Shown in pieces: positions 16,210-17,849 of a stretch of DNA of 64,000 nt. The stretch lies in the sequence record NC_054920.1; one strand, 5' to 3'. This DNA comes from Escherichia phage vB_EcoM_G9062. Below the pieces are notes generated by a model that saw only the letters and a list, made by a program, of their open reading frames with translations, ran no database searches and was not told the origin of the DNA. Made by a program: the position numbers and the translations under genes. Position 1 is the first letter of the stretch; each line of letters opens with the position of its first letter.

Positions 16210-16989
16210 TTAATTAAAAATATATACTTCATCAGTTCCATTCTTTTCTTTGGAATGATATATGTTAAAGACGTATTTTTTATTAAGATGCTTAACATTA
16301 TATTTTTTAGACCATTCTTTAAGAAGAGTGTTTTCCTTTCCGTGATGCTCTAAAACATTCGACAGTCCAAATTTTATTCCTCTGTCATTTAAAGAATCTA
16401 AAAGATTTAAAAGGTCTTTTTCTTCTTCTTCTGACCAAAATTTATTATAATCAGCAACTGTTATAAGATATGGAGGGTCCACATATACAAAATCGCCGTC
16501 TAGAATTTTGACATCTTTAAAATGCAATGAACTAAAGATTATTTTATCACAATTTTGTTTAAAGTGATTAAAGCGTTTTTCACTATTTTTGTTTATAGTT
16601 CTTTTTCCAAACGGAGTAGTAAAATTTCCTTTATCGTTTATACGAATCATATTACTAAACCCGTGAAAATGAAGAACATAAAGTAAAAGAGGATCTCTAG
16701 TTTTATTATAATCTTCACGTAATTTCAAAAACTCTTCTTTTGATGTTTTTGATAGTTTATATTGCTTTATTACTTTTAATACGTCATCCCATGATACATT
16801 AATAAGACGCTTATACATTTCAATAATTGGTTCTTGAATATCATTGGCCAATACAGGACCATTGACGTTCAAAGACACGGATAAACCTCCACAAAATAAA
16901 TCCACGAATCTGTCATATTTTGGAAAATGAGGCTTAAGTTCAGGTAATAATGACTGTTTATTACCTGTATACGCGATAGCTCCTAGCAT
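16210..16989 (-). CDS. dam: DNA adenine methyltransferase Dam (259 aa)
   Basis: 259 aa; DPPY catalytic motif, N-terminal FxGG SAM-binding region. Confidence 0.9.
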
Positions 16990-17549
16990 TATATTCTCTC
17001 ATTTATTGCAGCAAAAAACGAATTATATAATTCTTCATCATATGTATTTGATAGTAATACTAACACGTTTTGTGATTTAGCATATTCATTAAACCTTGCT
17101 TGGATAGTTGGATTATCAGTAAATGATTCTCTTTTTGTCCATTTATTACGTGGATAATATCCGCATGGCAAAAAATCTAATATCATCAATGACACAGGGT
17201 TTTCAGTTTTTGTGTATTCTTTTAATTTCTCTTTATCTTCTAAATATATTCCAACCGAATCAATAGCTGTACCTCCACCAACTTGGTGTTTAATTTCAAT
17301 TATATGCTTTTTACCGTTGCGAGAAATAACAATATCAAATCTTCTAGTACGCTTCTTAGTTATAAAATTAGAACAAAACAAATTATTTGATTTTTCAGTA
17401 TCATCGGTTAAAACCATTTTTTCTTGATAACTAACTGAACAATCAGTGAAATATTCTTTTACTTTATTAAGTATGAAATTTTCAACTACGGCAGATATTT
17501 TATATGAATCTCCGTTTAAAGCCATTTCATGCACAATTTTATTAATCAT
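16989..17549 (-). CDS. PD-(D/E)xK nuclease-like protein (186 aa) coupled to dam
   Basis: motif [20 protein letters not shown] (D...E-x-K); stop overlaps dam ATG by 1 nt; SD GAGGA; own early promoter. Confidence 0.5.
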
Positions 17550-17573
17550 TATATCATCCTCAGCAATTTATTT

Positions 17574-17604
17574 TATAATACCATAACAAGCTGAGAAAGT
17601 AAAC
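17574..17604 (-). promoter_or_regulatory. T4-type early promoter
   Basis: minus-strand GTTTAC (17604-17599), 18 nt spacer, TATTATAA. Confidence 0.5.
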
Positions 17605-17648
17605 AAATTTATGAAATTTGTGATAAATATTAATTTAAAGGAGGACAT

Positions 17649-17849
17649 ATGGCACAAAAATTAATGGCACTTGTTAATGCCATCAAAGGTAATAAGAAAC
17701 GTATAGCTTTTACTATTTCTGCTATGGTAGGAATTTTACTCTGGAACTTTATTTTATCACCAATTGCAATTGCGCATGGTGTTAATATTCCAGTAGTTAC
17801 TCTTGATACATTCGTAGATCTAGCATTTGCTTTAGTTGGGTTAATTTAA
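17649..17849 (+). CDS. small hydrophobic membrane protein (66 aa), only plus-strand gene called
   Basis: strong SD AAAGGAGGA 5 nt before ATG; two predicted hydrophobic helices; near-consensus late box GATAAATA about 18 nt upstream. Confidence 0.5.
   Translation: MAQKLMALVNAIKGNKKRIAFTISAMVGILLWNFILSPIAIAHGVNIPVVTLDTFVDLAFALVGLI

Follow-up and report, generated by a model that had tools for sequence, protein, structure and literature searches.

A nuclease-like gene coupled to dam in T4-like phages suggests a restriction-modification-like cassette of which T4 retains the methylase

The Dam methyltransferase of bacteriophage T4 is a textbook enzyme, and what purpose it serves in the phage has, to our knowledge, never become clear. 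In the genome of Escherichia phage vB_EcoM_G9062 (sequence record NC_054920.1) the dam gene is directly preceded by an open reading frame (ORF) of 186 codons, here called ORF186, which raises the question of what a nuclease-like protein would do beside a GATC methylase. We analyzed a stretch of 64,000 nucleotides (nt) of this genome (the window), which is the rIIA-proximal 64 kb of a T4-like phage (Tequatrovirus); the 2.8 kb around ORF186 are 99–99.7% identical to many Tequatrovirus genomes. An original prediction, made from the letters of the window, had described ORF186 as a PD-(D/E)xK nuclease-like gene translationally coupled to dam, and had proposed either a restriction-modification (R-M)-like unit or, equally, a methylation-sensitive nuclease acting on host DNA. 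Our data favor the former. We propose, with a probability of roughly one half, that the phage carries in ORF186 and dam a Type II R-M-like toxin/antidote cassette.

ORF186 carries the D-x(n)-E-x-K signature that had been claimed for it, at amino acids (aa) 70–89, with D72, E85 and K87 as the motif residues. These three residues and a helix glutamate, E23, are invariant across nine homologs down to 29% identity, and therefore the motif is not a chance match. In a structure model ORF186 forms one domain with the alpha-beta-beta-beta-alpha-beta core of the PD-(D/E)xK superfamily. D72 lies on strand 67–77, E85 and K87 on the adjacent strand 80–88 and E23 on helix 15–33, so that the D...(D/E)-x-K residues occupy the second and third core strands, as is characteristic of the superfamily. 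The top structural match was MunI, a Type IIP restriction endonuclease (PDB 1D02) whose recognition site is CAATTG; at 13% sequence identity, no relationship of ORF186 to MunI or to EcoRI-like orthodox Type II enzymes is detectable at the sequence level. Further structural matches were Mus81, RecU, Bax1, Vsr and McrC, and among the viral structures of BFVD the matches were the ORF186 family itself and generic nuclease folds. The model and the structural matches support the predicted PD-(D/E)xK restriction-endonuclease-like fold, and a protein built in this way would presumably cleave DNA in a metal-dependent manner.

The family to which ORF186 belongs is very small. Among 1.84 billion representative proteins searched exhaustively with HMMER there were just 11 matches, all of them family members, fragments or low-complexity sequences, and a word-indexed search with a wider family profile added nothing further. 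The family profile had no match among PDB sequences at E ≤ 10. None of 185,579 bacterial and archaeal species genomes showed the conserved family motifs when scanned for them, which gave no bacterial source for the nuclease. About 150 Tequatrovirus records carry the family, as do Dhakavirus MX01, Jiaodavirus KPV15 with its relatives, and two contigs from metagenomes that have T4-like genes (primase, spackle, rIIA); one more metagenomic contig with an ORF186 homolog was too short for classification. By these searches, the carriers that could be identified are T4-like phages only.

One phage record, that of phage Shinka (MZ502379.1), annotates ORF186 as a 'putative DpnII restriction endonuclease', and about 150 other records call it hypothetical. 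Against the DpnII profile of Pfam (PF04556) the window ORF186 scored 16.8 bits, below the gathering cut-off of 23, with only profile positions 152–235 of 278 aligned; by this score ORF186 does not qualify as a member of the DpnII/MboI family, whose enzyme DpnII acts at GATC and is blocked by methylation of the Dam type. PF04556 matched 4 of the 9 ORF186 family members (best E 8.3e-5), and the PADLOC model for Type II restriction endonucleases, REase_II, reached a best E of 5.3e-6 among the family members, which is also sub-threshold. When the ORF186 family was aligned with the DpnII profile by hhalign the result had P = 6.5e-4 but a probability of only 27.6%. This alignment pairs E23, D72 and E85 of ORF186 with E152, D201 and E214 of DpnII, and an asparagine of DpnII stands opposite K87, so that the motif reads E-x-N in DpnII and E-x-K in ORF186. 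The strand motifs RFD(I/F)VI and (I/L)IE(I/V) align as well.

Using a narrow DpnII hidden Markov model (HMM) we found that the window ORF186 scored above 9000 of 9000 composition-matched shuffles, and a signal was seen in its close relatives too. The DpnII alignment had been seeded from a sequence that matched PF04556 at 2.7e-100 and was 99% identical to a database protein; its identity was confirmed by a named Streptococcus pneumoniae DpnII fragment among the matches. In the AlphaFold model of DpnII the C-terminal half (148–288) has the element order of ORF186, an order that is generic for the superfamily. Together these comparisons are no more than suggestive of a kinship between ORF186 and DpnII. 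DpnII is the nearest curated family, with sub-threshold matches in profile searches; for DpnI, which the original prediction had named, there were none.

The second half of the pair is a Dam-family methylase with matches to MethyltransfD12 of Pfam (PF02086, 6.5e-51) and to TIGR00571 dam (1.4e-69). The record of its T4 ortholog notes GATC methylation in DNA with modified as well as unmodified cytosine, including hydroxymethylcytosine (hmC) DNA. We also found that GATC is the most under-represented 4-base-pair (bp) palindrome of the window, with 69 sites compared with 207 expected from trinucleotide frequencies (observed/expected 0.33); the second lowest is TCGA, at 0.62. Locally there is one GATC site in the cassette (16692, within dam) and one at 17817, in the neighboring plus-strand gene ORF66. 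Depletion of GATC is compatible with an R-M-like model.

In every context inspected, spanning all nine divergent lineages, a D12/Dam gene lies directly downstream of the ORF186 homolog. The pair was found in four carrier groups (Tequatrovirus, Dhakavirus MX01, Jiaodavirus KPV15 and metagenomic T4-like phages) and occupies at least three genome positions. In Tequatrovirus, Dhakavirus and two metagenomic phages it is flanked by gene 61/ORF66 on one side and gene 56 on the other; in KPV15 it is located 3' of rIIA-rIIB and an endonuclease gene (rIIB/denB), and in L004 immediately 5' of rIIA. The junction of the two genes is tight throughout: the reading frames overlap by 1 nt (TAATG) in the window, MX01 and the contig L011, abut (TAAATG) in L006–L010, and overlap by 7 nt in KPV15, 20 nt in L004 and 35 nt in L003. 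Pairwise identities range from 29 to 63% for the ORF and from 51 to 72% for Dam, and the two correlate over the lineages (r = 0.77), a sign of long co-inheritance. An endonuclease gene that adjoins a methyltransferase gene and is inherited with it is what defines the arrangement of Type II R-M systems.

We then asked in which combinations the two genes occur. A query that was half dam and half ORF186 matched 180 phage records: 145 Tequatrovirus records contained both genes, and about 35 contained dam and, on the side of the ORF, no more than its first 87 nt, which is the state of T4. About 330 other Tequatrovirus records, T6 among them, were matched by the flanks and lack the whole 1,427-bp cassette. 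Consistent with this, the annotation of T6 and of Mosigvirus JK42 gives the order gene 56, ORF66, gene 61; neither dam nor ORF186 appears between the first two. Nuclease without methylase was not found in the phage collection. The 153 full-length tblastn matches to ORF186 comprise the 145 Tequatrovirus records with both genes and eight divergent records (six Klebsiella phage, two MX01); among these eight the contexts of KPV15 and MX01 were inspected, and dam is present in both. The nuclease is retained in about 80% of the Tequatroviruses that carry dam. The comparison with the classical T-even phages, which the original prediction had left to be made, therefore places the ORF in T2, a relic of it in T4, and neither the ORF nor dam in T6.

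The T4 state results from a deletion between 8-bp direct repeats that takes ORF186 codons 1 to about 158 and the promoter and leaves dam in place. The relic of ORF186 in T4 consists of about 21 C-terminal codons (aa 159–179). In phage KarlGJung a different deletion, also between 8-bp repeats, has removed the start codon and the catalytic core, and here too dam is kept. The breakpoints (Table 1) indicate that the dam-only state is the product of at least two independent microhomology deletions. T2 (LC348380), the T4 relic and the KarlGJung relic share in addition a 1-nt deletion in an A/T run (window about 17014–17020), which frameshifts the last 7 codons of ORF186; in T2 this yields a protein of 181 aa ending in NSFLLQ, whose frame stops 13 nt off dam. 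Laboratory T2 may therefore carry a crippled allele. In G29 and G4500 ORF186 is split in two.

ORF186 bears the marks of selection: the ratio of non-synonymous to synonymous substitution rates (dN/dS) was 0.03–0.08 for ORF186 and 0–0.06 for dam, which points to strong purifying selection on ORF186. Methylase-only derivatives are present and nuclease-only derivatives are not. The repeated loss of the nuclease with the methylase kept, and never the reverse, is an argument that without Dam a carrier is harmed by the nuclease, and that Dam brings a benefit even when the nuclease is gone. As read from these genotypes, such one-sided loss is a classical signature of restriction-modification.

The way in which the two genes appear to be expressed fits a single unit. 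At the junction the plus strand reads catta, which is TAATG on the minus strand, so the stop codon of ORF186 and the ATG of dam share one base, as the original prediction had stated. It had also credited ORF186 with an early promoter and a Shine-Dalgarno sequence of its own. The latter is present, 7 nt from the ATG. The candidate promoter matches the consensus at 9 of 12 positions; since the number of early-type promoter matches in the region equals the shuffled expectation and is not enriched, this promoter is plausible and not proven. Upstream, a predicted terminator-like hairpin 3' of gene 61 separates the primase transcript from the cassette promoter.

T4 itself offers an observation on the same subject. 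Record X01416 annotates for dam a 'potential promoter P(E) 17.40' (613–641), which straddles the deletion junction, where sequence corresponding to about 17040–17076 of the window is joined to that of about 17617–17630. Its –35 element comes from the ORF66-side sequence and its –10 element from the 3' relic of ORF186. Apparently the deletion that removed the nuclease assembled the putative dam promoter of T4. The dam gene of the window has no such –35 element and is presumably read from the ORF186 promoter.

In the reading that we favor, the two genes would share one early promoter and be translated in a coupled fashion, and production of the nuclease would thereby always be accompanied by production of the methylase. 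ORF186 would be a small PD-(D/E)xK endonuclease, its target would be DNA at or overlapping Dam sites (GATC) that lacks N6-methyladenine (m6A), and Dam methylation of the phage's own DNA would be the antidote. The victims would be un- or under-methylated competitors in the same cell, such as co-infecting phages, including the Dam-less T6-type, and other foreign DNA. Host DNA is probably not the target, because the enterobacterial hosts are Dam+; the strict need for Dam suggests that hmC phage DNA itself is sensitive to the nuclease. In T4 and similar phages, where the nuclease was lost by deletion, Dam may have been kept as an orphan, 'vaccinating' methylase. The R-M-like architecture that had been proposed from the window is supported by the comparative data on coupling, universal linkage, co-divergence and one-sided loss, and the interpretation as a whole is supported in part.

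Conflict with co-infecting DNA that lacks Dam methylation would be the most economical role for such a cassette, although this last step is speculation that we think unlikely. Its sharpest form, which we likewise regard as unlikely, makes ORF186-Dam a weapon between phages: the nuclease would cut m6A-less GATC even in hmC DNA and so destroy or out-recombine co-infecting Dam-less relatives of the T6 type, to which about two thirds of Tequatroviruses belong, and phages with Dam only, such as T4, would be vaccinated survivors that have shed the toxin. If this were true, a selective function would be found for T-even Dam, which laboratory phages have been able to do without for some 60 years, and the conflict would be part of the cause of the three-fold GATC depletion.

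Several points weigh against the cassette reading. Glucosyl-hmC on T-even DNA blocks most Type II enzymes, and therefore Dam would be unneeded for self-protection unless the nuclease tolerates hmC. The hosts are Dam+, so that their DNA would be protected. Hattman and co-workers reportedly isolated viable T2 dam– mutants, which would argue against a lethal nuclease in T2; the C-terminal frameshift of the T2 allele qualifies this point. An older account of GATC depletion in enterobacterial phages is counter-selection by MutH/Dam. The specificity and the methyl-sensitivity of ORF186 would follow only from its linkage to Dam. As for DpnII, the similarity stays under the cut-off and covers the catalytic core only, ORF186 is without the N-terminal part of about 145 aa, and the three most distant members of the ORF186 family gave no signal with the narrow DpnII HMM.

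These points leave room for other functions. ORF186 could be a nuclease of phage DNA metabolism, engaged in host-DNA breakdown, recombination-dependent replication or repair, whose only tie to dam would be the common operon, without any toxin/antidote relationship. Its place among the early genes of DNA metabolism, with primase to one side and dCTPase to the other, would suit such a role, as would the use of PD-(D/E)xK folds in repair and recombination (Mus81, RecU, Bax1 and Vsr are among the structural matches) and the fact that membership in a specific restriction endonuclease family is not established. However, operon neighbors in the hyperplastic regions of T4-like genomes are normally shuffled, and this pair has stayed intact over three positions and down to about 30% identity. 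A metabolic nuclease would also leave unexplained why the ORF is lost and dam kept, and why an orthodox Type IIP restriction enzyme comes closest in structure. We consider this explanation unlikely. The alternative that the original prediction had put on an equal footing, a modification-dependent nuclease (DpnI-like, Type IIM/IV) directed at Dam-methylated cytosine DNA of the host, fares worse. On that account the phage would be shielded by glucosyl-hmC and its Dam would top up methylation of the target. Methylated GATC is indeed abundant and host-specific, since the hosts (Escherichia, Shigella, Yersinia, Salmonella, Klebsiella, Serratia) are all Dam+, and McrC, which belongs to a modification-dependent system, is among the fold matches. 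But Pfam and PADLOC gave no DpnI or winged-helix methyl-reader match at E ≤ 10, and the model has a single domain. In Dam+ hosts a phage Dam would be superfluous to a DpnI-like nuclease, and nuclease-only genotypes would therefore be expected; among the 153 full-length copies there are none. Dam-only derivatives are, moreover, kept under purifying selection, which implies that Dam has value without the nuclease. The data thus disfavor this alternative, and we hold it to be quite improbable.

Mobility offers another explanation for the patchy spread of ORF186, which occurs in about one third of the records of nearly identical Tequatroviruses. The ORF might be a free-standing homing-type endonuclease, like seg and mob of the T-even phages, that cuts cassette-less relatives near dam-61, with Dam as a passenger or as protector of the home site; it does lie between conserved genes, in a region that holds the homing endonuclease SegF in T4. 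Little credence is due to this possibility, because the ORF-less state of T4 is a deletion with a 3' relic and not an empty target site, because the ORF is never apart from dam even at other genome positions, and because ORF and Dam diverge together, so that they are stably co-inherited and the ORF does not move alone. ORF186 also has no GIY-YIG, HNH or LAGLIDADG domain. Finally, the protein might not cleave at all. It could be a partner of Dam that has a nuclease fold but binds DNA or regulates, acting for instance as a factor for specificity or targeting. It is small, the N-terminal part of DpnII is missing from it, and it has been lost repeatedly without obvious harm. Inactivated PD-(D/E)xK domains usually lose their catalytic residues, whereas the four canonical residues of ORF186 are invariant, and the gene is under strong purifying selection; we regard a non-cleaving partner as very improbable.

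Known systems give the cassette reading a frame. In DpnII/MboI and DpnM of S. pneumoniae, as here, a GATC-type methylase of the Dam family is paired with a PD-(D/E)xK nuclease; DpnII/DpnM reside in a bacterial chromosome, whereas the ORF186-dam cassette resides in a virulent hmC phage. Viruses with R-M genes are known: the chlorella virus pair R.CviAI/M.CviAI acts at GATC and degrades unmethylated host DNA, and phage P1 has EcoP1I. These likewise place a nuclease and a protecting methylase on a virus that expresses them during infection. The present case differs in that the hosts are Dam+ and their DNA is probably not the target, and in that the phage genome is hypermodified with glucosyl-hmC. 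Orphan methyltransferases can also arise when an R-M system loses its R gene, and a functional dam with an adjoining 21-codon relic of ORF186, as in T4, is the footprint expected of such a loss; unlike those orphans, T4 Dam has so far been regarded as a stand-alone phage methylase. ORF186 and Dam fit best into a known type, the Type II R-M-like nuclease/methylase pairs, as a new sequence family with an unusual carrier.

We also looked at the relatives of the phage Dam on plasmids. The closest of them (about 38–43% identity) are mainly methylases of Firmicute plasmids and not solitary Dam of the E. coli type. DpnII-type systems were not what lay beside the closest plasmid Dam homologs: 5 of the 6 loci examined are Type IIS R-M systems of the AlwI or FokI type, and the sixth, from Psychrobacter, has no annotated nuclease.

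The sequence of ORF186 is not new. The T2 dam entry of 1988 (M22342) annotates dam alone, so the sequence has been public since then, and Miner and Hattman are said to have described in that year a 536-bp 'insertion' 5' of T2 dam. Within the library searched, we found no paper on ORF186, on its universal pairing with Dam or on T4 Dam as an orphan left by deletion, and nothing relevant on the T2 insertion or on ORF66. The comparison of genomes suggests that T4 Dam is the half that survives of a restriction-modification cassette carried by phages. If Dam is indeed the antidote half, T4 Dam gains an origin and a testable function, and both the '536-bp insertion' that distinguishes T2 from T4 and the missing Dam of T6 are explained. 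An R-M-type system in virulent hypermodified phages would be unexpected, given that most restriction enzymes are already stopped by glucosyl-hmC. Should the enzyme cut hmC DNA in a methyl-sensitive manner, it could find use as a reagent.

Table 1. Positions of the genes, signals, residues and deletions at the ORF186-dam locus, in window coordinates.
Feature	Position	Strand	Description
Gene 56	15631–16164	–	dCTPase
dam	16210–16989	–	259 aa; Dam-family GATC N6-adenine DNA methyltransferase; about 98% identity to T4 Dam
Accessory cassette	16211–17637		1,427 bp; dam, ORF186 and promoter; from BLAST breakpoints against T6 and junction sequences
TAATG stop/start overlap, ORF186-dam	16987–16991	–	Predicted translational coupling
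ORF186	16989–17549	–	186 aa, ATG start; phrog_8706, 'unknown function'; PD-(D/E)xK restriction-endonuclease-like
T4-type deletion	17077–17624		548 bp between 8-bp direct repeats TTTGTGAT (17069–17076, 17617–17624); T4 and about 35 other records
KarlGJung deletion	17188–17558		371 bp between 8-bp repeats ATATCATC (17180–17187, 17551–17558); independent
Codons of ORF186 aa 70–89	17283–17342	–	D72 17336–17334; E85 17297–17295; K87 17291–17289
Helix glutamate E23 of ORF186	17483–17481	–	Outside the aa 70–89 stretch
Shine-Dalgarno sequence of ORF186	17557–17561	–	GAGGA, 7 nt 5' of ATG
Candidate promoter, ORF186-dam operon	17575–17603	–	Sigma-70/T4-early type; TTTACT-17-TATTAT, TG-extended, 9/12 consensus
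ORF66	17649–17849	+	66 aa, ATG start; phrog_2024; small membrane protein; between gene 61 and ORF186
Terminator-like hairpin with U-run	17661–17686	–	3' of gene 61; fold energy –12.4 kcal/mol, z = –3.0
Gene 61	17846–18874	–	Primase (gp61)

The original prediction had described the plus-strand neighbor ORF66 together with the nuclease-dam pair. The gene is real but independent of the pair: ORF66 is present in 691 phage records, among them T4, T6 and Mosigvirus (about 54% identity in Mosigvirus), which lack the cassette, and in distant T4-like phages without it, so that ORF66 is ruled out as a cassette component. It matches phrog_2024 at 1.6e-31, ends 4 nt into gene 61 and is always convergent with that gene, in Tequatrovirus, Mosigvirus, Dhakavirus and distant T4-like contigs alike. 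The distant T4-like phages retain the pattern K-x2-KK...WN...P-x-A...G...P-x-VT. T4 has an intact 66-aa ortholog (AF158101, 17738–17938), which is unannotated in AF158101 and NC_000866. In the metagenomic T4-like contig L011 an extra ORF of 93 aa without a Pfam match (4010–4291, plus strand) lies between ORF66 and the ORF186 homolog, which marks the interval as a hot spot for small insertions.

ORF66 had further been described as the only convincing plus-strand gene of the window, and nothing contradicts this: none of the other plus-strand ORFs of at least 90 aa in the window matched a phage family. One of these, an ATG ORF of 136 aa (4197–4607), lies in a gap between minus-strand ORFs near gene 39/60 and has no PHROG match. 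The near-perfect Shine-Dalgarno sequence and near-consensus late box claimed for ORF66 are there, as AAGGAGG 6 nt before the ATG and as GATAAATA, which agrees with the T4 late box TATAAATA at 7 of 8 positions. The first 13 codons of ORF66 contain the terminator-like hairpin of gene 61, and so the same stretch would serve as minus-strand terminator and as plus-strand coding sequence. As to the predicted two-helix membrane protein, hydropathy shows one clear hydrophobic segment at about aa 19–43, after a basic N-terminus; a second helix is uncertain because the second hydrophobic stretch, near the C-terminus, is shorter and contains two Asp residues.

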